A stretch of DNA of 52,688 bases. Origin: a virus. Lineage: Duplodnaviria; Caudoviricetes. This document shows, in pieces, positions 1 through 52,688 of the stretch. Under the pieces are notes generated by a model that saw only the letters and a list, made by a program, of their open reading frames with translations, was not told the origin of the DNA and made no database searches. How positions within the stretch are numbered: position 1 is the first letter of the stretch; every line of letters starts with the position of its first letter. The position numbers were made by a program, and so were the translations under genes. Location: positions 1 through 52,688 of IMG/VR virus record IMGVR_UViG_3300034123_000003, one strand, 5' to 3'.

Positions 1-116
1 TTGGCATGGAGAAAATCCTTACCCTTATCGGTTCCGTAGACAAATCGGACACGTACACAGTAAAAGGAAGGCCGCTTGCCAATGGCATCTGTGAATGGGA
101 TTTGGTTTGGCTTGGC
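1..116. repeat. Terminal overlap, identical to 52548-52663 (circularisation point)
   Basis: ttggcatggagaaaatcc...ggtttggcttggc occurs at both ends; identity stops after base 116 / 52663. Confidence 0.95.
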
Positions 117-857
117 GGCGGTGGCGGCGGATCGAGCGCGTCTCCGGTAACCGCTCGGCTTGGCGTGGCCGCAAGCTACTCTCTTCTTGCTTACTCGGGG
201 ATTACGAACACCGGGAACACGGTTATCTCCGGTGGCAACATCGGCTCGTCCCCGACAGCATCCATTACCGGCTTCCCTCCGGGGACTCTCACGGCTCCAG
301 CGATCATCAACAACGCAGGAGCAGCGGCGGCGCAGACTGCTTTGGCGTCGGCGATCCTTTACTATCAGGGGTTGACTCCAACCCTTTCCGGGTTGAGCAA
401 TCTCAGCACCGGAGGAAACGGCTCTACGGCGGCTACGTTCACCTCCGGCGTCTACGTTGGCGCGGCTGGGTTGACGATGCCGACAGGGATCATTCTCGAC
501 GCGCAGAACAACCCAAACGCCACATTCGTGTTTGTGGCAGGATCGACAATCAACCTTGCCAGCGGCCAGACGGTATCGCTTGTGAATGGAGCGAAGGCTT
601 CTAACGTGGTGTTCGTGGCAGGTAGTTCCTTTACATCAGTGGCTACCTCGACGATTAACGGAAACATCCTTGCTGTGGCCAGTGTCACGCTTGGGGGCGG
701 TACACTGAATGGACGCGCACTCGCCAACACCGGGGCGGTCACTATCGCGGCGGCTACGGCTGCTACCGTTCCGGCATCTGGCAGCACTGGAGGCGAAGTG
801 GCTGCGGGAACAAACTTGTCTGGCTTCACTGTGAGGCTTACGGCTATCGGGATTTAG
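1..857 (+). CDS. 3' part of a small head-associated protein carrying an inserted DUF3494 ice-binding (IBP-1 fold) domain; true start is ATG 52412 across the junction (330 aa total)
   Basis: DUF3494 hallmarks LGVAASYSLLAYSGITNTG..GNIGSSP, TFTSGVY, LDAQNNPNATFVF, LVNGAKASNVVF, GNILA..SVTL..LNGRALA..GAVTI; flanks are homologous to ORF 52076-52402. Confidence 0.9.
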   Translation, partial: GMEKILTLIGSVDKSDTYTVKGRPLANGICEWDLVWLGGGGGGSSASPVTARLGVAASYSLLAYSGITNTGNTVISGGNIGSSPTASITGFPPGTLTAPAIINNAGAAAAQTALASAILYYQGLTPTLSGLSNLSTGGNGSTAATFTSGVYVGAAGLTMPTGIILDAQNNPNATFVFVAGSTINLASGQTVSLVNGAKASNVVFVAGSSFTSVATSTINGNILAVASVTLGGGTLNGRALANTGAVTIAAATAATVPASGSTGGEVAAGTNLSGFTVRLTAIGI

Positions 858-881
858 GGATAGGTTTTCATTAACCTTTGG

Positions 882-915
882 GCTGGGGGCTTCACGGCCC
901 TCAGCTTTTTCTTTT
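882..915 (+). terminator. Intrinsic terminator after the head module
   Basis: gctgggggc-ttcacg-gccctcagc stem followed by tttttctttt. Confidence 0.75.
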
Positions 916-926
916 AAGGAGAGAAC

Positions 927-1928
927 GTGGCGCTCATCGACATGACCTCTGAGCTTACCGACTTGGTTCCAGCGTTGAGCCGTGTCCGTGCTAAGAGGCT
1001 CGTCAATCGCGCATTCAAGATCGCTCAAGACTCATCGTTGTGGAGCTTTCAACTTCAGCAGGGAAGTTTCTCCACGCCGAGCGTATCGACGGCTGGTTCG
1101 GTCACGTTCTCGTTGGGAAGCAATCAGGTCATCGGCGATGCGGCGGCTTCTGCTCAGTGGCAGGCGTTGCCGTTCTACTGGAGCCCGACGACTCAGCAGA
1201 TCAGGGCGCAAGGTTACTCGGTCTACTCCATCATCGCAATGGATACGACCGACCCTAACGCGGTGGTTTTGACTCTCGACAGGAACTTCACCGATCCTCT
1301 CAAGTTCTACACCGGGGTTCCCTACCAGATGTACGGGGCATACATTCCGGCTCCAAAGGGCTTCAAACGGTGGCTGAGTGTGGCAGACATGTTCGATATG
1401 TGGTCGATGGACATTTGGACTGGAGTTCGCACAGAGAACCTTGTCGATCCTGCCCGTCAAATATCGTCGAACCCTTACCGGATGCTGCCCATTGGAACAG
1501 ACCGGCGCGGCGCTGGAACAGCAACTCCTTCGGCCACTCTGAATCAGCAACTCTACGAGCTTTACCCATACCCGACTACAGAGATTTCCTACCAATGGTA
1601 CGCCGTAGTCGAGTGGCCGGAACTGGTGAACAACAGCGACACCCTTCCGTACCCTCTCGACGAAGAGGTAATCACTCAGAAGGCTTTGACGTGGGCCTAC
1701 AGGGACGCAGAGAGCCGGAAGGATATTATGGCGGCGAAGGGGGCAGGTGGGAACTATCTCGGCCTCAAGAAAGACTCGGAGACTGACTTCTTGACCCGCC
1801 TGAAGACTTTGCGCCTGTTGGACCGGGAGGCGTGTGATGCGTACATGGTTGACATGCGGGCCGCGATGAGATGTCTTACGTTCTGTCCTTGGTTCAACAG
1901 TTCAACGATGAGATCGAGTCCATTCTAG
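927..1928 (+). CDS. Putative head-tail adaptor / tail tubular protein
   Basis: 333-aa ORF, RBS aaggag, first gene after the head module; helical termini with beta-rich middle as in podovirus adaptors; positional call. Confidence 0.5.
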   Translation: MALIDMTSELTDLVPALSRVRAKRLVNRAFKIAQDSSLWSFQLQQGSFSTPSVSTAGSVTFSLGSNQVIGDAAASAQWQALPFYWSPTTQQIRAQGYSVYSIIAMDTTDPNAVVLTLDRNFTDPLKFYTGVPYQMYGAYIPAPKGFKRWLSVADMFDMWSMDIWTGVRTENLVDPARQISSNPYRMLPIGTDRRGAGTATPSATLNQQLYELYPYPTTEISYQWYAVVEWPELVNNSDTLPYPLDEEVITQKALTWAYRDAESRKDIMAAKGAGGNYLGLKKDSETDFLTRLKTLRLLDREACDAYMVDMRAAMRCLTFCPWFNSSTMRSSPF

Positions 1929-1938
1929 GAGGCGGGTA

Positions 1939-2190
1939 ATGGCAAACGAAGCAGACGATCTAGTCAACACGATCAAAAGCTCTTGGAAAAAGGCTTACGA
2001 TCTAGCCAATAAGGTTCCTTGGAAAAAGCAGGAATACACGGACATGCACGCCAAGAGAGTCGATGAGGCGAATGAGTCTTTTCGCAAAGAGGGCGGGAGA
2101 AAGAAACTGACTCCCGAAGGTCCGAAATTGGGCAGCAAGAAGAAGACGGCTAAAAAGACGCGGAAGGAAACGGCGAGAAAGAGGAACTGA
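1939..2190 (+). CDS. Small basic hypothetical protein
   Basis: RBS ggagg, K/R-rich C-terminus. Confidence 0.7.
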   Translation: MANEADDLVNTIKSSWKKAYDLANKVPWKKQEYTDMHAKRVDEANESFRKEGGRKKLTPEGPKLGSKKKTAKKTRKETARKRN

Positions 2191-3537
2191 TTGGCTGGTT
2201 ACTCGTATGTAAATCTCGGCCAACTCCGCGCTGCTCTGATGCATAGGCTTCAAGACGCGGGGAACGTAAATGTCCCCGTCGCCGAGGCAAATCTCTACAT
2301 CACGGAAGCTCTTCGTGTTCTCTGTGCCCAAACACAGGCCCCCGGAATTGTCGATTTCATTCTCGACTTCAACCCCGGAGATACGTGGAAGAGTCTCAAC
2401 TTCGCAGGATCGCCACGCGAACGCACCGTTACCGACACGGACATCTACAGACAGATCGAAGCCATGCTGTACGAGCCGATGAGCGGCGGCGTGTGGACCG
2501 GAACCAATCAGTTCAACATCACGCAACTGGCGAACTCGCTTCAATATCGCCGCGACGAACTCTTGCTGGCTTCTGGGTGCAACACGGTCAACCTTCTCAC
2601 GCCGTCGCCGCTTCTCTCTACGACGACCATTCTTCCCGATTCGACGCTTGACCTTCAGAGGGTGAGGTTGGTTCCAGACTCTACTCTTTCGTCAGAGTCA
2701 CCCTACGCTCTGGGGCGAGAGGATGTGACGACGCGCGATTCGTTTGGAGTACTGCTTCCGATACAGCCCGGTTATCCTGAATCGTGGATGATTACGGCAA
2801 ACTCCCCACTTGAGTTCGATTGCTCCTGCCCACCAAACCAGCCGGGTATGTGGGACATGCTTGTTCCCTTCGCTGGAGTGGCGTTTATTCCGCCAGCAAG
2901 CACCCTTGTAGGCATTCCTGACGACTGGACCCCTGCACTGGTCTATGGAGTGCTGGCTGACGTGCTGGCGAACTCTCCAGAGGGAAGAGACGAGAAACGG
3001 TCCAAGTATTGCCTTCAGAGGTACGAGCAGTTCAAGAAGGCTATGGTGAAGATGCCGTGGCTGCTCGACGCCAGCGTGGGGTCTATCCCGGTTGACATGC
3101 CATCGTTCAAGGAGATGGACGCCTACGCGCAGAACTGGGAGCAGACTTGGCCTGCCGACGATCCGAACATCGTAGTGGGTGGAATCGATCTAGTCTCACT
3201 CGCGCCGAATGTCCCCGTCTCCGGCGTAACCGTCTCTGCGGCTCTGACCGTCGTAGGCAATGCGCCGATACCGACAGGCGATGCAAGCCTGATACAACTC
3301 GACCGGGCTGGAGTTGATGCCATTCTGAACTACTCTCAGCACGTGGCATCATTCAAGCAGGGAGGGAAAGACTTCTTCAACACTCTTCCTCTATTCCAGC
3401 AGTTCGAGGACTATTGCCGCCTCAAGAACCGTCAGTATGCGGCGTTGGGAATCTTCCGTCCAGACGTGATTGGGCAAGGCGATAGGGGCCAAGAACGTGA
3501 CCCCCGGTTTGAGAAGGAGCAGCCGGAAAATGGCTAA
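2191..3537 (+). CDS. Putative virion structural protein (adaptor-like)
   Basis: 448-aa ORF, TTG start with gagga RBS, in tail module. Confidence 0.5.
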   Translation: MAGYSYVNLGQLRAALMHRLQDAGNVNVPVAEANLYITEALRVLCAQTQAPGIVDFILDFNPGDTWKSLNFAGSPRERTVTDTDIYRQIEAMLYEPMSGGVWTGTNQFNITQLANSLQYRRDELLLASGCNTVNLLTPSPLLSTTTILPDSTLDLQRVRLVPDSTLSSESPYALGREDVTTRDSFGVLLPIQPGYPESWMITANSPLEFDCSCPPNQPGMWDMLVPFAGVAFIPPASTLVGIPDDWTPALVYGVLADVLANSPEGRDEKRSKYCLQRYEQFKKAMVKMPWLLDASVGSIPVDMPSFKEMDAYAQNWEQTWPADDPNIVVGGIDLVSLAPNVPVSGVTVSAALTVVGNAPIPTGDASLIQLDRAGVDAILNYSQHVASFKQGGKDFFNTLPLFQQFEDYCRLKNRQYAALGIFRPDVIGQGDRGQERDPRFEKEQPENG

Positions 3538-3554: not shown

Positions 3555-3584
3555 TTGCATCTAATCCGATAAATGTTTTATACT
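3555..3584 (+). promoter_or_regulatory. Sigma70-like promoter, probably leaderless, for the HNH gene
   Basis: TTGCAT-N18-TATACT then 6 nt to ATG 3591. Confidence 0.55.
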
Positions 3585-3590
3585 TGTTAC

Positions 3591-4352
3591 ATGAAATGTC
3601 TCGTATGTGGAGCAGATGTTGAACGGAAAAAGAGAGGCCGATCTCCGATGTATTGTGGATCAAAATGTCGAGAAAGAGCCCGCCCCAAGACAGAAAAGCG
3701 TCTTGAACAGAAGCGTTCGGCGTATCGAGCCCACTACCAAAGAAACAAGGATGCTATTCTTGCAAAAAACCGAGAGTGGATCAAGGATCATCCTGAAAAG
3801 CCTAGAGAGTACACCGCATCATACAGAGATCGTAATCCAGAGGTGCGTGAAAAAGAGAGGATCAGAATACGCGAATACCACGCCCAAAACCGAGATATTG
3901 AATTAATCAAAAAAAAGGAATATCGACAGAAAAATAGTTTGAAAATGAGGAGGTACGCAGAAGAGAACCGGGAAAAGTTGAATGAGTATTCTCGTAATTG
4001 GCAAGCAAAAAAACGCGCTGAAAACCCAGAACTTAATCGGCAGAAACAGAAGGAATGGTATCGGCGTAATCCAGCTAAATATCTAGCGAAGACTCACCGA
4101 CGTGAAACACGTCTCACTGGCGCTGGAGGATCGTACACTGCTGAAGAGTGGAACTCTTTGTTGGACAAGTACGGGCATCGCTGTTTGCGATGCGGAAAGA
4201 CAGGAATAAAACTGACGGTAGATCACGTGATTCCTGTACTACTGGGAGGGACATCGAATATCGATAACCTTCAACCCTTATGCTTGTCTTGCAACTCTCA
4301 CAAGCACACCCGAATAGTCGATTATAGGCCGGAGGAAATTCATGGCGCGTAG
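3591..4352 (+). CDS. HNH endonuclease (free-standing, homing-like)
   Basis: N-terminal CxxC..YCxxxC, long basic helical region, C-terminal CLRCG..LTVDHVIP..GGTSNIDNLQPLCLSCN; visibly more A-rich than neighbours. Confidence 0.9.
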   Translation: MKCLVCGADVERKKRGRSPMYCGSKCRERARPKTEKRLEQKRSAYRAHYQRNKDAILAKNREWIKDHPEKPREYTASYRDRNPEVREKERIRIREYHAQNRDIELIKKKEYRQKNSLKMRRYAEENREKLNEYSRNWQAKKRAENPELNRQKQKEWYRRNPAKYLAKTHRRETRLTGAGGSYTAEEWNSLLDKYGHRCLRCGKTGIKLTVDHVIPVLLGGTSNIDNLQPLCLSCNSHKHTRIVDYRPEEIHGA

Positions 4353-7300
4353 AACCGACAACTTTGTGGGTGTTGACTTAAGCTCCCCATTGAATCGGGT
4401 TCCGGTGGGTCGCTCCCCTATGGCCGTAAACGTTCGCGGCTACGAGCAGGGTACGTTTGAGATGAGGACTTCGCTTTCCAGCCCGATTTTCATGGACTCC
4501 TCTGCGATCATCTTCGATTCATCGGTCCAGTCGATTGCGAGAATGAACGACACCACTCCAGCAGGACCCGCCGATGGGTTCGTGTTTATCGGCGTAGACG
4601 CTTCTGGGAAACTGTACTCGAACGACAGGGTGATCGCCGAAGGTCTTTCCGGTGATCCAGTCTCTATCATTCCGTTCCGTCCAAACGCTTCTGTTCAACC
4701 GTGGGCCTATGTGTTCGACAGTTCCATGGGTGTGACAATCCATACAAAGTTCGCTCTCAACAACATCCCAACAGACTTCAATTGCTTCGGCGCTCTCAAG
4801 GTTCGGTCTGATGGTTTGGTCTACAAGGCGGGAATAAAGGAACCACCTTTGGCTCCAGCGGTTGGAACGGAAAATACAATCGTCATTGACAGTGGTCCAC
4901 TACTCGCAACAGCTATTCCGTGGACCAACTACGCAGGACAGAATACCGACTTCAACTATGGAGAACTGAACGGTCTACCGAATCCCGGAACCCCTAACCC
5001 GGTAGACGGGACCGCTCCGTTCATCGTGAACGTGGCGAACGCCTCGACTATCACCATCACCTCGATTACCGGAACGGCCACCATCAACGGAGGGGCTAAG
5101 ACCCCGACGAGCGCGGGTCCTGCTGTGGGTAGCACGAATCCGGGTGGGTATGTGCAGGTCGGAGGAACATCTACCCCTCCCAGCACTGTTTCTGTAGTGG
5201 TGGGAGCATTCACGGACGGGGCTGGAAACGTCGTTGACAAAGGTGTTGCTCCCTACTACGTTCCCGCTGTTGTCGATCTTGGCGGGAACATCGGAGTTTC
5301 GATCAAAGTTCCATCGGGGGCTCGCGCACTTCAAATCGGCATCAACTCGACCGGCGACACGTTCAATGCGAACTCCGGACAATTCAATATCGAACTAGAA
5401 GTCGAAACAGATGCATTGCCTCCCACCATGGGAATTCTCAACAGCCTGTCTCTGTATTACTGGGGAGATTCCCCTAAGTCGGGAGCCGTAGATCAGTATA
5501 TCTGGAAGAATCCCGGTGACACTGGAGGTGGAACTCCTCGATCTACTTCCAACGCAGACGGAAGCATAACAGGTAACTCGTTTATTTTCGATGCAACATT
5601 TAACGCAGGAATTCCAGGTTTGCCAGGAGTTGGAGACCCTGACACTCCGATGGAATGGTCAGCACTGAGCGCAGAGAGCGCAGTAACCGGAAGCGTTCCT
5701 ATTTTCGCTTCACCAATAACAACCACCTATTCTTCGCAGACGCATTACTCAGATTTCAACTTCTGCCTCTATGGACAGATTTACATTCCTGCTGCCGGAC
5801 AGTACACATATGTTTTGACAAGCAAGGACGACTGCATATGGGGAATAGAGGGAGCAACGCTTATTTCTGCAACTCCTTCCGGGGTAGGTGAAAGCTCATC
5901 TGTTGGACTGTCCGGTTCAGGACAGACGATCACTGTAGTCAAAGGCTACTCTCTACTTCCACGCCAGAACTATACGCATGGAGATGGTGGTAAATATGCG
6001 CAGACAACAGTGGTCGTGTCATTCGCTGCGGCTGGTACTTACGGTATCGAGATCGACTACGACTACTGGTATCACTCAGGACGTATTCTGCTTCTAGAGG
6101 CATCCCCTACTCCCGGAGCATCTCCAACAATCATTCCGCCAATCACGGCTAACATTAGAACCAATACGTCTTACGCCTATAAGTACAGGTCATCCCTGAC
6201 AGGTGCGCAATCGAATCCGAGTCCAACCTCTACGCCAGAAACGACTCCCGTTTTGGCAAATACTGTCGAGGTGGTTTATTCTCCCGATCCTCAAGTAGAC
6301 AAGATCGATTACTACCGGCAGGATGGAGGACTTTCAAATTACACCTACGTGGCAACAGGTCCAAACACTAATCCTCCCACTGCGATCACAGATTCTCTTA
6401 CAGATGCAGAGGCGGCAAACAATCAAGAGATGACGTACACGGACTATGAGCCAGTCCCATCGATTGATATTCCAAACTCCGGAAGATGCAATGTTTCAGG
6501 AGGGGTAATAACTGCAACTTCCGGTTCGTTCAATAAGCGATGGTTGCCGGGAACAAAGATTCTTATTGGCTACCCTACACAACTTCCCTACACGTTTATC
6601 GCTCGTCCAACGAGCACAACACAGGTAGAGATTTCTGGAGTTCCTGACGGTACTAATTTGGAGTGGAATATCGCCGAGCCCGTGCTAGCAAACCAGCCGA
6701 TTCCCTACATGTTCGGACCTAGCGACAACATCAACTACATCTTCGGAGTAGGTGACAAACTTCGTCCAGGAACTCTCTACTGGTGCAATGGTTCCAATCT
6801 CGATTCATGGGCAGACACAAACCAGTTCGACGTGACCGACCCATCTGAGGCTCTTGTAAACGGAGCGATGAGCGGAGGAAGAGCGGTTTTGTTTTCCATA
6901 AAGCGCGGATGGGTTCTTAATGCGAACTTCTACAACGCTCTTGCCAATGTGACTGGTACTTCAGGATCGACATGGACGGCTCAGGACGCTTCTATACCTC
7001 GCGGCTTGTATATCCCTCGTTGCCTTATTGTGCAGGGAGGAGGAAAAATATTCTTCCGCGTGGATGATGGAATTCACTACTCGAATAAAGGAGTTGGTTC
7101 ACAGTCGATCACTGACGATGATCTTTACCCTCTCTTTGTTCATGAAGGGTCTACCCCTGTTCCCGTGGTGCGCAACGGGAAAACGATCTACCCTCCCGAC
7201 GACTCTCAGCCGAATCGTCAGAAGTTCTCGCATCAGGGTTCGTTTATGTACTGGGACTATATCGGTCTCGGAGATGGACATCCTCACACGATGGTCTATG

Positions 7301-7809
7301 ACACCGAGCGCATGGGGTGGGTGTGGGACTTGTATGAACCGGCAGCTACCATCCACGCCTCAAACCAAGGCGAGAGTATTCAGGGAAACATCGTGGGATG
7401 CGTAGACGGGTCTATCAGGCTTCTAGTCAGCGATGGAGTCGAGTCTCCTTCATCCACGGTGGCAACTCCTGCCATCGGAGGACAAGGCTACATGCTGGCC
7501 TATGAGGCAACCTTTGAGTACAAGGCCGATTCCGGGGCCACAGTGTCCTTTGTAGCGGTCGATGCGAATAATGGGAGCTACGCACCCAACTCAATCGTTC
7601 TGGACTCTACAGGAGGCCAAATCACGAAATTCACGACCAAGGTTAGCCCGTCGAAGTGGAAGCTACTTCATACGGTTTTCGACTGGTCAGATCCTTCGCT
7701 TGAGGTCTATTTGCAAGGATGCTCTCTAGCGGTGAAGCCTTGGGATGGAGAAACGTTTAAGAACGTGCCTCTGTTCCACGGGTCTGGTGGCGAGGGAGGA
7801 CAAACCTAA
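4342..7809 (+). CDS. Large tail protein (podovirus nozzle / tail tubular B-like) with internal PA14/GLEYA-like domain
   Basis: 1155 aa, beta-rich; C-half TLYWC..W, LVNG..GRAVLF, IFFRVDDGI resembles propeller nozzle proteins; GQIYIPAAGQYTYVLTSKDD is PA14-like. Confidence 0.6.
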   Translation: MARRTDNFVGVDLSSPLNRVPVGRSPMAVNVRGYEQGTFEMRTSLSSPIFMDSSAIIFDSSVQSIARMNDTTPAGPADGFVFIGVDASGKLYSNDRVIAEGLSGDPVSIIPFRPNASVQPWAYVFDSSMGVTIHTKFALNNIPTDFNCFGALKVRSDGLVYKAGIKEPPLAPAVGTENTIVIDSGPLLATAIPWTNYAGQNTDFNYGELNGLPNPGTPNPVDGTAPFIVNVANASTITITSITGTATINGGAKTPTSAGPAVGSTNPGGYVQVGGTSTPPSTVSVVVGAFTDGAGNVVDKGVAPYYVPAVVDLGGNIGVSIKVPSGARALQIGINSTGDTFNANSGQFNIELEVETDALPPTMGILNSLSLYYWGDSPKSGAVDQYIWKNPGDTGGGTPRSTSNADGSITGNSFIFDATFNAGIPGLPGVGDPDTPMEWSALSAESAVTGSVPIFASPITTTYSSQTHYSDFNFCLYGQIYIPAAGQYTYVLTSKDDCIWGIEGATLISATPSGVGESSSVGLSGSGQTITVVKGYSLLPRQNYTHGDGGKYAQTTVVVSFAAAGTYGIEIDYDYWYHSGRILLLEASPTPGASPTIIPPITANIRTNTSYAYKYRSSLTGAQSNPSPTSTPETTPVLANTVEVVYSPDPQVDKIDYYRQDGGLSNYTYVATGPNTNPPTAITDSLTDAEAANNQEMTYTDYEPVPSIDIPNSGRCNVSGGVITATSGSFNKRWLPGTKILIGYPTQLPYTFIARPTSTTQVEISGVPDGTNLEWNIAEPVLANQPIPYMFGPSDNINYIFGVGDKLRPGTLYWCNGSNLDSWADTNQFDVTDPSEALVNGAMSGGRAVLFSIKRGWVLNANFYNALANVTGTSGSTWTAQDASIPRGLYIPRCLIVQGGGKIFFRVDDGIHYSNKGVGSQSITDDDLYPLFVHEGSTPVPVVRNGKTIYPPDDSQPNRQKFSHQGSFMYWDYIGLGDGHPHTMVYDTERMGWVWDLYEPAATIHASNQGESIQGNIVGCVDGSIRLLVSDGVESPSSTVATPAIGGQGYMLAYEATFEYKADSGATVSFVAVDANNGSYAPNSIVLDSTGGQITKFTTKVSPSKWKLLHTVFDWSDPSLEVYLQGCSLAVKPWDGETFKNVPLFHGSGGEGGQT

Positions 7810-35178: not shown

Positions 35179-36147
35179 CTAAAGTTCGTAGTTTTCCGCT
35201 TCGATTTTGGTCAAGAAAAAGTGGATACCGTGGGAGCAAACGTTCCAGCGATCTTCGTCCCATGAGTCGGCTGTGACCGTCTCTCCCGTGCGGTAGGTAG
35301 CATTACCGTGAGAGCTTCGTCCCTCGTCTGCGCCGATGACTTCCAAAACAACAACATGAGAGGCGCGGCACTTGCGCCCTTCCCCGTGGCTGCGTTTGGC
35401 ATCTGCGGGTATCAGGAGATGTACCAAAACCCCTTCAAGGCAAATCTTCCACGCCTCAAATGGTCCAGTCTCAGGGATGAATTGAATAGCGGCGAGTGCT
35501 TTCTCGGAATTTTTGGCACCGCGCAGGTAGGCACTGCTCAGGTCGGCACTGCTCAGGTCGGCACCGCTCAGGTCGGCACTGCTCAGGTTGGCACTGCTCA
35601 GGTAGGCACTGCTCAGGTCGGCACCGCTCAGGTTGGCACTGCGCAGGTTGGCACTGCTCAGGTAGGCACTGCGCAGGTCGGCACCGCTCAGGTTGGCACC
35701 GCGCAGGTCGGCACCGCGCAGGTTGGCACTGCTCAGGTCGGCACTGCTCAGGTCGGCACCGCTCAGGTCGGCACTGCTCAGGTTGGCACTGCTCAGGTAG
35801 GCACCGCGCAGGTCGGCACCGCGCAGGTTGGCACTGCTCAGGTAGGCACTGCTCAGGTCGGCACTGCTCAGGTCGGCACCGCTCAGGTTGGCACCGCGCA
35901 GGTAGGCACTGCTCAGGTCGGCACCGCTCAGGTTGGCACTGCTCAGGTAGGCACTGCTCAGGTAGGCACTGCGCAGGTTGGCACCGCGCAGGTCGGCACC
36001 GCTCAGGTAGGCACTGCGCAGGTCGGCACTGCTCAGGTTGGCACCGCGCAGGTCGGACTTCTTAGCTATCGCCTCAAGTACAGCGTCTTTGATGGTGAGC
36101 GCGGCAGATGTAAAAATCACCGCGCCGTAAATGTTCTTGATTTCCAT
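35179..36147 (-). CDS. Pentapeptide-repeat protein with conserved C-terminal phage domain (DUF5758-like)
   Basis: A[NDY]L[SR][GS] repeats; C-terminal L.IPADAKRS....KCRAS..WDEDRWNVCSHGIHFF. Confidence 0.9.
   Translation of the reverse strand: MEIKNIYGAVIFTSAALTIKDAVLEAIAKKSDLRGANLSSADLRSAYLSGADLRGANLRSAYLSSAYLSSANLSGADLSSAYLRGANLSGADLSSADLSSAYLSSANLRGADLRGAYLSSANLSSADLSGADLSSADLSSANLRGADLRGANLSGADLRSAYLSSANLRSANLSGADLSSAYLSSANLSSADLSGADLSSADLSSAYLRGAKNSEKALAAIQFIPETGPFEAWKICLEGVLVHLLIPADAKRSHGEGRKCRASHVVVLEVIGADEGRSSHGNATYRTGETVTADSWDEDRWNVCSHGIHFFLTKIEAENYEL
35515..36054. repeat. 36 tandem 15-bp units encoding the pentapeptide repeats
   Basis: ggcacYgcKcaggtH units over 540 bp. Confidence 0.95.
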
Positions 36148-39961: not shown

Positions 39962-40123
39962 CGCACCAAAGGGGTGAGTGATGGGATTTTGGAGTCTTGC
40001 TCACGATTACCCGTTTATGACGATGGCGGCAGTGGTAATCGTAACGTATCTTGTATGCCAGTCTGCGGTATATATCGTTCAACTGTTGACCGAGAAAAAG
40101 TGACGCACCAAAGGGGTGAGTGA
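39962..40123 (+). repeat. 20-bp direct repeat cgcaccaaaggggtgagtga (39962-39981, 40104-40123) flanking a 40-aa TM gene (39981-40103)
   Basis: Exact duplicate visible in sequence. Confidence 0.9.
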
Positions 40124-50162: not shown

Positions 50163-51392
50163 ATGCCTGGATTTGGGCCGCTTTTCCCGGAACTAAGTTC
50201 CACTACTCTCAACGAGCTCGTGGATGGGTATATCTACCAGAACAGCTACGTGGGGACTCCCCTACAACGCTATTTCCGCGCTTCGGGTGCATATGACCCA
50301 TTCGGCGGCGGCGCTGGTATGCAGGTTCCCGACCTCTACCAAGGGGTAGGCGGCGGCGCACTGTTCCCCGGCGAGGATGTGACCATCGTCGATGAGCAGG
50401 TCATCACTGCCAGCCTCTTCCAGCCCAAGGCGTACGCCAAGTACAAGCTGGTGAACGATTTTGTGATTGAGGCTCAGAACAAGGGTCCAGAGGCTCGTGT
50501 GGCGCTGCTCGAAGCGTACCTGAATCAGATGATGGAGGGTATCGACTTCCAGATCGAGGGCGATATGTTCCGCCACGGTCAGGCGTCGGGCAACGGCGTC
50601 AGCGACAATCGCCTCGCATCTATCAACGGGTTCTCGGAAGCGATGAACGACGGCATTGTTCCTTCATGGGACGGCAACGTGTTCCCGACCTACGGCGGTC
50701 AGTCTCGCAACGGCGCAATCGCCGCTTCGATGAACTCGACTCCGATCTGGCTGGGCGATCAGAACGGCAACCCAGCCCCCCCGAACTATCAGTCTCTTTT
50801 GAAGAGCTACCTGACTCCGATCTTGAACGGTGGAGACAAGCTGGGCGTCACCTCGTACCTAGGGTACTCTTCGATCACTTCGGCATTCCAGCGTCAGGAG
50901 CGGTACTTTACCCGCGACGACAAGCACATCAACTGGGAAGGCATCAAGCTCGAAAACGCGACCATCTTCTACGACGACATTGTTCCATCGAGCGCCCCGA
51001 AGCCGTCCATTGCGAACCTGTTTACCACAGTGAACGGAACCGCTCCTTCGCCGGGTGCGATTCAGACCGGCCAGTTCACTTTGACGGCAGCGATGATCGC
51101 CCAGAATCAGGGCATCTCGAATCTTCCGAACCTTGGATTCACGTCGAACTCGACGAAGAACGGCTTGGCCGGTGGCTTGAATCAGATTGTGGTCGGCGAG
51201 CCGCTGTTCTGGGTGACACCGGACAACTGGAAGTACCGTGAGGCTGACGGCGCTCCGGTGAACTACTACTTCATGGACCCCGCTCGGTGGCCTGAGAATC
51301 CGTTCCTGTACGTGCAGTGGTTGCGGCATGTGCTGAACTTCTACACACCGACGCCGCGTGAAGAGCAACAGACTTATGGAATTTTGGCTTAG
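50163..51392 (+). CDS. Major capsid protein
   Basis: 409 aa, strong RBS aaggag, position after scaffold; HK97-like layout inferred. Confidence 0.75.
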   Translation: MPGFGPLFPELSSTTLNELVDGYIYQNSYVGTPLQRYFRASGAYDPFGGGAGMQVPDLYQGVGGGALFPGEDVTIVDEQVITASLFQPKAYAKYKLVNDFVIEAQNKGPEARVALLEAYLNQMMEGIDFQIEGDMFRHGQASGNGVSDNRLASINGFSEAMNDGIVPSWDGNVFPTYGGQSRNGAIAASMNSTPIWLGDQNGNPAPPNYQSLLKSYLTPILNGGDKLGVTSYLGYSSITSAFQRQERYFTRDDKHINWEGIKLENATIFYDDIVPSSAPKPSIANLFTTVNGTAPSPGAIQTGQFTLTAAMIAQNQGISNLPNLGFTSNSTKNGLAGGLNQIVVGEPLFWVTPDNWKYREADGAPVNYYFMDPARWPENPFLYVQWLRHVLNFYTPTPREEQQTYGILA

Positions 51393-52075: not shown

Positions 52076-52402
52076 ATGGCGCAGGCATTAGGTAGCTCGA
52101 AAGTCCTACTGGGCGATGTTGACACCTTCGGCGGCAAGGGCTATGCCCCCGTCGATTACAGCGGACCCGCTAGTTATACGACTGGCGGCGACACTCTTGA
52201 TCCGAAGTCGTTCAATATGAATAAATTCCTGACCGTGATCGGCTCCGTGGATCAGACAGGTGCCTATTACGTGGAAGGTAGAACGCTTGCCAATGGAATC
52301 TGCAACTGGCAATTGGTCTGGTTTGCGGTAGGCGGCGGCGAAGTGGCCGCTGGAACAAACCTTTCAGGCTTTACAGTCAGACTTTCGGCAATCGGAATCT
52401 AG
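52076..52402 (+). CDS. Small head-associated protein (108 aa), paralog of the ice-binding carrier
   Basis: Aligns end-to-end with the flanks of the 52412-(857) product. Confidence 0.75.
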   Translation: MAQALGSSKVLLGDVDTFGGKGYAPVDYSGPASYTTGGDTLDPKSFNMNKFLTVIGSVDQTGAYYVEGRTLANGICNWQLVWFAVGGGEVAAGTNLSGFTVRLSAIGI

Positions 52403-52411
52403 GGAGAAGTA

Positions 52412-52688
52412 ATGGCGCAAGGATCAGGCATCTCGAAAGTCCTGCAAAGCTCCCTGGATACGTTTGGCGGGAAGTATTACGGTCCATTGGATTACGTTGG
52501 ATCTTCTAGCTACGTCACGGGTGGAGACAAGATTTCAGCCAAAGCCTTTGGCATGGAGAAAATCCTTACCCTTATCGGTTCCGTAGACAAATCGGACACG
52601 TACACAGTAAAAGGAAGGCCGCTTGCCAATGGCATCTGTGAATGGGATTTGGTTTGGCTTGGCAGCACTGGAGGCGAAGTGGCTGCGG
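52412..52688 (+). CDS. 5' part of the second paralog (MAQGSGISKVLQ...), here in the insert-less form, truncated by the contig end
   Basis: ggag RBS; 47 codons to ATG 52553 (= base 6); after 52663 it continues as bases 783-807. Confidence 0.85.
   Translation, partial: MAQGSGISKVLQSSLDTFGGKYYGPLDYVGSSSYVTGGDKISAKAFGMEKILTLIGSVDKSDTYTVKGRPLANGICEWDLVWLGSTGGEVAA

Follow-up and report, generated by a model that had tools for sequence, protein, structure and literature searches.

Introduction

Microbial ice-binding proteins of the DUF3494 family (Pfam PF11999, also called IBP-1) fold into a right-handed beta-helix with a long helix alongside, and, to our knowledge, many DUF3494 proteins have never been tested for ice binding. 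Here, we analyze IMG/VR record IMGVR_UViG_3300034123_000003, a stretch of 52,688 nucleotides of tailed-phage DNA (the window), in which a predicted domain of this family is not a free secreted protein but a passenger in a loop of a small protein encoded in the head block of the phage. We refer to the inserted segment as the cassette and to the small protein as the carrier; the likeness to the microbial proteins consists of a near end-to-end profile match and an alignment of ~200 residues to solved proteins. Our overall reading, which we consider highly probable, is that the window represents a closed circle of a peat phage with two co-existing genotypes, one with the cassette and one that lost it recently by a deletion at a short direct repeat.

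Among phage structural proteins, the closest comparison is provided by immunoglobulin (Ig)-like display domains, which occur on T4 Hoc and on many structural proteins of tailed phages. They are likewise non-essential, surface-type additions to structural-module proteins that are present in some relatives and absent from others, but the passenger at this locus is a beta-helix of the ice-binding family, sits inside a loop instead of at an end, and is found in both states in one population. For the deletion itself, the T4-type rII deletions are natural losses between short direct repeats, and they too remove the DNA between the repeat copies while retaining one of them. In contrast to those, the repeat here is only 4 nt long, the loss is in frame and domain-precise with a family-typical product, and the deletion form makes up about half or more of the population in two sequencing runs.

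Viral genes of the same Pfam family have been described before. In PMC11515562, three viral PF11999 'ice-binding-like' genes from the Arctic surface ocean are read as host-protecting auxiliary metabolic genes; they share with our locus the Pfam family, an origin in uncultured phages, and a cold-region habitat. Whereas that paper treats them as host-protecting genes, the domain studied here lies within structural-module proteins, one encoded next to the capsid gene and others, among relatives, homologous to a 1,155-aa protein, and because it is built into such proteins, a virion-displayed module is the better reading of the cassette than a host-protecting gene. In a preprint on fibrillar adhesins, PF11999 is counted among the adhesive domains, with ice as its target, and PMC12923769 and PMC10405475 mention ice binding in their reference lists only. 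Our full-text literature search found no report of DUF3494 domains built into phage particle proteins and no plus/minus polymorphism of a DUF3494 domain in such proteins.

Results and discussion

The contig end and the two forms of carrier gene 2

The window ends in a copy of its own beginning, followed by a jump. Positions 52548-52663 (plus strand, as are all features of this locus given below) are an exact copy of positions 1-116, a match of 116 nt on which a script comparison and direct reading agree, and the last 25 nt (52664-52688) exactly equal positions 783-807. The skipped stretch, 117-782, measures 666 nt (222 codons), is in frame, and corresponds to the whole cassette, in which the DUF3494 ice-binding-type domain is preceded by a Gly/Ser linker and followed by a C-terminal linker. 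Only one of the two alleles has it. The motif TGGC stands at 113-116 and again at 779-782, as seen in the script comparison and in the run contigs described below, and the contig-end form retains a single copy at 52660-52663, so the joint, placed at 112->779, has four letters that fit either side. In the whole window, the only exact repeats of at least 20 nt are the two end matches, an array of a 15-nt tandem unit at 35.5-36.0 kb, and a 20-mer pair at 39962/40104; the end match is therefore not due to chance.

The gene affected is the second of two tandem carrier genes and starts at an ATG at 52412, not 52414. Its 5′ part at the contig end (52412-52688) comprises 84 codons shared by both forms and then the deletion junction, at which VWLG is followed by STGGEVAA, and equals residues 1-92 of the database protein P0231. 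When gene 2 is joined across the 116-nt overlap, it encodes 330 aa, with codons 47-330 and the stop provided by the remainder of the insert-bearing form (3-857), which was identified by translation and by its PF11999 match. When it is read through the contig end and then onward from 808, it encodes 108 aa (..VWLGSTGGEVAA..). The plain tandem paralog upstream, carrier gene 1 (P0001, 52076-52402), also encodes 108 aa (..VWFAVGGGEVAA..), and the two 108-aa proteins align without gaps at 71 of 108 identical positions (66%).

An earlier, sequence-only reading of the window had reported the terminal identities, the 666-bp in-frame skip at TGGC, and a 108-aa product with the length and spacing of the paralog, all of which were reproduced exactly by the script comparison, the translation, and the gapless alignment. 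It had further argued that so exact a restoration was improbable by chance. The restoration is indeed exact, but the argument turned out to be weaker than proposed: of 11 possible in-frame deletions with at least 4 nt of microhomology that would remove the domain core within the linkers, two give 108 aa and the rest give 104-125 aa, so a return to exactly 108 aa is not as remarkable as it first seems. A product would also have to remain able to fold before it could become frequent.

Closure of the genome

IMG/VR classes the record as linear, with an estimated completeness of 68%, and a script comparison found no exact terminal repeat of 11-200 nt at the window ends, which fits that class. Our analysis suggests instead that the window is a closed phage circle and probably a complete 52.5-kb genome overlooked as linear. 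The overlap of 116 nt ends 25 nt before the contig end, the reading frame over the join matches full-length 330-aa homologues (P0005, 94% identical), and relatives carry, contiguously and in this order, the capsid gene, a 218-aa gene, the carrier gene or genes, a 333-aa gene, and a 448-aa gene. The 333-aa gene that follows carrier gene 2 in the window (927-1928) serves as a synteny anchor, the order being continuous in relatives.

The unique sequence amounts to 52,547 nt, and 52,547 + 141 = 52,688, in line with a caveat of the sequence-only reading that the 141-nt end segment could stem from a branch in the assembly graph. The first and last 141-mers of the window start at the same point of the circle and differ in their final 25 letters only, where one enters the cassette (G...) and the other passes beyond it (A...). 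Assemblers with a final k of 141 may close loops with such an overlap. The assembler would thus have closed the circle with a k = 141 overlap and taken the deletion branch of a bubble for the last 25 bases, and this choice would explain both why the deletion allele is visible at the contig end only and why the record was classed as linear; it was probably missed as complete because its last 25 nt follow the other allele. The case shows that a genome may be closed even though its viral record is labeled as linear and 68% complete, and that a real second allele may lie behind an odd contig end.

Both forms in public metagenome runs

The phage was found in two public peat-metagenome runs from different studies, here called X1 and X2, and the evidence from them consists of Logan contigs over window positions 1-3000, with one mean depth per contig. 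In X1, the flanks are a contig of 16,721 nt at depth 20.1, which stops at 116, and a contig of 34,764 nt at depth 17.6, which begins at 779; they are connected by a cassette path of 722 nt (87-808, depth 7.6) and a deletion path of 56 nt (depth 7.6) that departs from the reference after 116 and ends in the letters following 783. This is a clean two-armed bubble in which the arm depths total roughly the flank depth, as for alleles. Together, the two long X1 contigs would tile the circle except for the tandem array at 35.5-36.0 kb (35515-36056), which is presumably the break point of this short-word assembly.

In X2, a single 6,003-nt contig (depth 10.9) bridges 112->779 and shows no other difference from the window in the allele flanks, over 112 nt upstream and 1,649 nt downstream. 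Insert sequence is represented in this run only by two short pieces, of 151 nt at depth 2 and of 253 nt at depth 3.6, and window bins 501-700 have no contig cover, which fits a scarce insert and proves nothing alone. The last 25 nt of the window show the same join as the X2 6,003-nt contig and the X1 56-nt path. In rough terms, the alleles stand at ~1:1 in X1, and the deletion allele is in the majority by ~2:1 to 4:1 in X2. In addition, the 108-aa deletion product predicted here is matched at every residue by P0231, which comes from two sources and one 39,912-nt contig, which differs in size from the window and from the Logan contigs.

These observations support both alleles as real and co-existing in the sampled populations, as the sequence-only reading had proposed in speaking of genotypes with and without the ice-binding protein (IBP+ and IBP-): both paths occur in contigs of two runs, the exact 108-aa product stands on a separate 39,912-nt contig, and depth at the contig level is not flat across the insert (7.6 against 17.6-20.1 in X1, and 2-3.6 against 10.9 for the bridging contig in X2). 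If the join were an assembly or library chimera, made by template switching at TGGC, and cassette-less genomes did not exist, this would suit a segment of exactly 141 nt at a contig end, where assemblers leave graph debris, and a microhomology of the kind that is also typical of jumping in the polymerase chain reaction. However, a chimera would be rare and not favored over the true path, whereas an independent assembly method with shorter words (Logan) gives the same join in both runs, places it in X2 on the main contig at several times the depth of the insert, and is joined by the full 108-aa gene on the 39,912-nt contig. We therefore regard a chimera as extremely unlikely.

The depths also bear on a further tandem copy, another alternative of the sequence-only reading, in which each genome would carry gene 2 twice, once plain and once with the cassette, the two copies having identical ends and being collapsed by the assembler. 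The locus is already a tandem pair, and relatives have one to two members of the family, but either path in X1 reaches only about half of the depth seen in the flanks (7.6 and 7.6, compared with 17.6-20.1), the flanking X1 contigs extend over 16.7 and 34.8 kb up to the bubble without a break or an additional branch at the place expected for a copy-to-copy join, and the insert in X2 is mostly missing or present at one fifth to one third of the depth of the bridging contig. Contig topology and depth in X1 and X2 thus reject a third copy, and it is the least probable of the explanations weighed here.

Direction and mechanism of the change

The five closest relatives of gene 2, P0005-P0009 (78-94% identical), all have the cassette, and the carrier part of the deletion allele is 98% identical to that of the cassette-bearing P0005. 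In the carrier tree, the deletion allele stands beside P0005 (support 99/94) and is nested in the cassette-bearing clade formed by gene 2 of the window and P0005-P0008 (100/98); this clade, the plain paralog, and P0232 together make up a larger group (100/100). The cassettes of P0006-P0009 have diverged to 75-88%, so the insertion predates those relatives. Taken together, the nesting in a cassette-bearing clade and the identical flanks make a recent loss the simplest account of the short allele.

We propose that the cassette-less allele most likely arose by a recent, microhomology-mediated deletion. The short direct repeat TGGC is present at both breakpoints, with one copy kept; beyond these 4 nt there is no exact homology at the breakpoints, and no repeat of at least 20 nt flanks the cassette. 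According to this proposal, the phage genome would measure 52,547 bp in its cassette-bearing form and 51,881 bp in its cassette-less form, both forms being present in the sampled populations, and the shorter would have derived recently from the longer via replication slippage or illegitimate recombination at TGGC. The deletion would leave a plain 108-aa protein with the loop length of the paralog, and as this shortened protein would remain able to fold and assemble, the allele would then have become highly frequent. Of the alternatives raised in the sequence-only reading, precise loss is thus the best supported, and a recent insertion is unlikely given that the deletion allele nests within insert-bearing relatives.

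The same reading had also raised switching, which the breakpoint data do not support, as only 4 nt are shared and the boundary likeness is at shuffle level. A programmed or high-rate process, with dedicated excision and perhaps regain of the cassette, would have each lineage yield both kinds of particle, and it would suit the identical junction in two runs from different studies, the domain-precise and in-frame excision, and a likeness of 15 of 23 positions between the sequences just inside the breakpoints. This likeness was matched in 3 of 20,000 random pairs of window sequences, a control that is too lenient, and in 23 of 200 shuffles of local composition; of six cassette-bearing relatives, L045 had a comparable boundary likeness (12 of 200 shuffles) and the other five had none. 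A built-in excision repeat was rejected on the shuffles and the five relatives, with no search made for a linked recombinase. Furthermore, the common junction may reflect shared descent, and nothing hints at how a lost cassette would return. Switching is therefore very unlikely, and a recent loss at TGGC remains our preferred explanation.

The cassette and its carrier

The cassette matches Pfam PF11999 (Ice_binding; DUF3494, IBP-1) with an expect value (E) of 6.7e-35 and 121.1 bits against a cut-off of 28.7, over profile positions 2-206 of 208 and residues 62-252 of the window protein P0002. Among solved structures, 24 distinct sequences of ice-binding proteins are related to it at E <= 0.001; the best match is 6eio_A, 'Antifreeze protein' (E 1.2e-21, query residues 48-252), and 7bwx_A, 'Ice-binding protein isoform1a', is also found. 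From its sequence, the cassette is a complete ice-binding-type domain of the DUF3494 family, for which ice binding is a prediction. It is the sole PF11999-type domain in the window, so the deletion genotype is without an ice-binding-type domain.

The carrier belongs to a family of proteins of ~100-125 aa, the plain members being about 100-126 aa long. A search with P0001 among 1.84 billion proteins gave 107 representative clusters, and the look-alikes in the Atlas are 94-100% viral. The family profile matches the paralog (E 7.6e-40) and the contig-end open reading frame (ORF; E 5.4e-25) and matches the cassette-bearing ORF in two pieces, split at one loop. A single-sequence model of the carrier was unusable (predicted local distance difference test, pLDDT, 37), and an alignment-based model was used instead: AlphaFold2 with 102 relatives of P0001 produced a beta-sandwich with pLDDT 89.3, in which the insertion site is the loop after strand 78-84. 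Both tandem genes thus belong to a virus-only family of ~108-aa beta-sandwich proteins, and gene 2 bears the cassette in one loop. In four relatives, unrelated inserts of ~80 aa and ~265 aa occupy the same loop (L096:8205-9419, L125:7827-8441, L133:8141-8704, and L137:8214-8768); a Pfam search of the loop inserts of L096, L133, and L137 and of a 185-aa protein of L048 gave no match. The loop looks like a general display site that is permissive to inserts.

The carrier genes lie two genes downstream of the major capsid gene (50163-51392; phrog_9953, major head protein, E 3.7e-05) in a block with the order terminase, portal, capsid, and the window shares with its relatives an arrangement in which the portal gene comes first and, further along, the capsid gene is followed by the 218-aa gene, one or more carrier genes, and the 333-aa gene. 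Capsid decoration proteins, of which lambda gpD and T4 Hoc and Soc are examples, are likewise encoded in the head block, beside the major capsid gene. Because of this position, we read the carrier as a virion-surface protein, probably head-associated. A complex prediction for the capsid protein and the carrier scored 0.00, which is evidence in neither direction.

Relatives of the locus

A scan seeded with cassette-bearing proteins returned 29 viral loci. The carrier-plus-cassette design was found in 15 of them, with the cassette-bearing gene preceded by a plain member in eight, followed by a 185-aa member in six, and alone in one; several of these 15 loci are near-identical contigs, which reduces the set to some seven different sequences. 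The remaining 14 loci have the cassette in other proteins, among them two of 1,290 and 1,440 aa that are homologous to the product of the window's 1,155-aa gene (4342-7809). The window's own copy of that gene is without the cassette, while in the homologues at L051:4911-8783 (44% identity) and L061:3473-7795 it lies near the C-terminal end. Because L051 and L054 are parts of the same 50.5-kb contig, two different proteins of that phage carry the cassette.

In nearly all of these loci, the cassette protein is 75-82% identical to that of the window, whereas the capsid and portal proteins of the same phages are 28-31% and 31-35% identical to their window counterparts, respectively. Third codon positions in the cassette are 27-39% identical, meaning that synonymous sites are saturated, and the combination of saturated third positions with tight protein identity therefore points to old descent under strong purifying selection, not to recent transfer. 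That the cassette is conserved far more tightly than the capsid and portal proteins argues for an important role. A quick tree of the cassette was star-like with weak support, and it supports no inference on donors or transfers. In the carrier tree, the cassette-bearing carriers of a distant clade group with their own plain neighbors (99/95). Such grouping with neighbors in two distant clades (100/100 and 99/95; window 52076-52688 with L041, L045, L046, and L057) means either that independent duplications each received the cassette in this loop or that tandem copies evolve in concert.

A scan of genome_contigs with P0014 returned 36 loci, all of them ordinary bacterial DUF3494 domains at 34-45% identity, and among these 36 there was neither a carrier-type relative nor a host assignment. 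Some unrelated records among the bacterial DUF3494 loci bear 'k141_' names. No close relatives of the plain paralog were found in viral_contigs, and none of the contig-end product in metagenome_contigs; in both searches, records very near the window may be left out, so these negatives carry little weight.

The capsid protein of the window is 69-93% identical to that of 13 viral loci and ~30% identical to that of many more. An unbiased scan seeded with capsid proteins covered 80 loci: 49 have a single plain carrier gene of 100-130 aa, eight have a plain-plus-cassette pair, seven have a larger single gene (four with unrelated inserts at the same loop and three with over-called starts), one has a partial member, and 15, mostly truncated loci, have no detectable carrier member. 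In the closest phages (L070-L081), the carrier gene is 41-55% identical to either window paralog and the 333-aa protein is 58-85% identical, suggesting that the carrier locus evolves much faster than its neighbors or is replaced often.

Points against a recent loss in a closed circle

Several points weigh against our reading. The run evidence consists of contigs with per-contig mean depths, which makes the allele shares rough, and the phage is present in two runs only. X1 may be the window's own sample, and the origin of the contig carrying P0231 is unclear, which reduces the firm independent support to the X2 study. A 46-mer spanning the deletion junction had no match in viral_contigs or metagenome_contigs, searches outside which near-identical records may lie. 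The identity of the assembler and its choice of branch are conjecture. As for the carrier, neither Pfam nor PHROG nor PDB gave a sequence match, including a PDB profile search, and PHROGs across all 102 family members gave two stray single-member matches only. Its fold matches generic beta-sandwiches only: among solved folds, a fucosidase domain (Z 6.6), the fiber tip gp53 of phage AP22 (Z 6.1), and carbohydrate-binding modules, and among viral models, uncharacterized proteins with template modeling (TM) scores of 0.78 and 0.62 at best.

The closest phages provide an objection to the direction of change. All 11 with enough sequence (capsid 69-93% identical) have one plain carrier gene and no cassette, so gene 2 is itself a lineage-specific addition, and parsimony alone leaves room for a retained pre-insertion form. 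The cassette-less allele would then be the older one, a plain duplicate that persists in the population, and recombination with a related phage would recently have brought in the cassette-bearing allele. Such a history would agree with the occurrence of the cassette in many different carrier proteins, which makes it mobile over evolutionary time, and with the grouping of cassette-bearing carriers with their own plain neighbor in two clades. However, the carrier part of the deletion allele is nested among five cassette-bearing sequences, the X2 flanks are identical to the window over the lengths given above, the divergence of the P0006-P0009 cassettes places the insertion before those relatives, and comparison of the cassette with all other copies found shows saturation at synonymous sites, so that no recent donor is apparent. 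We thus consider an older plain allele unlikely and keep to a recent loss from the cassette-bearing form.

A possible meaning of the polymorphism

The new point of this work is the cassette-plus/cassette-minus polymorphism inside one phage population, the deletion event itself being ordinary. Two almost isogenic natural genotypes differ by exactly the cassette and stand at different, measurable shares in two samples, and as both persist at high shares, they offer a useful natural experiment on an undescribed virion module. As a tentative and rather doubtful proposal, the cassette may be a conditionally useful virion module, with both particle types kept by fluctuating selection in peat, where, for example, freeze-thaw or attachment to ice or slime would be set against the cost of the domain. 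If this is true, allele shares would track season, depth, or temperature, and the near-isogenic genotypes would amount to a natural knockout, giving a first view of the use of an ice-binding-fold domain to a virus particle.

Other features of the window

Between the 448-aa and 1,155-aa genes of the structural block lies a gene for an HNH endonuclease at 3573-4352 (Pfam HNH, E 3.6e-14). The tandem array at 35515-36056 repeats a 15-nt unit 36 times (consensus GGCACTGCTCAGGTC, with 88% matches); because it falls within a long ORF, its translation is a pentapeptide repeat.

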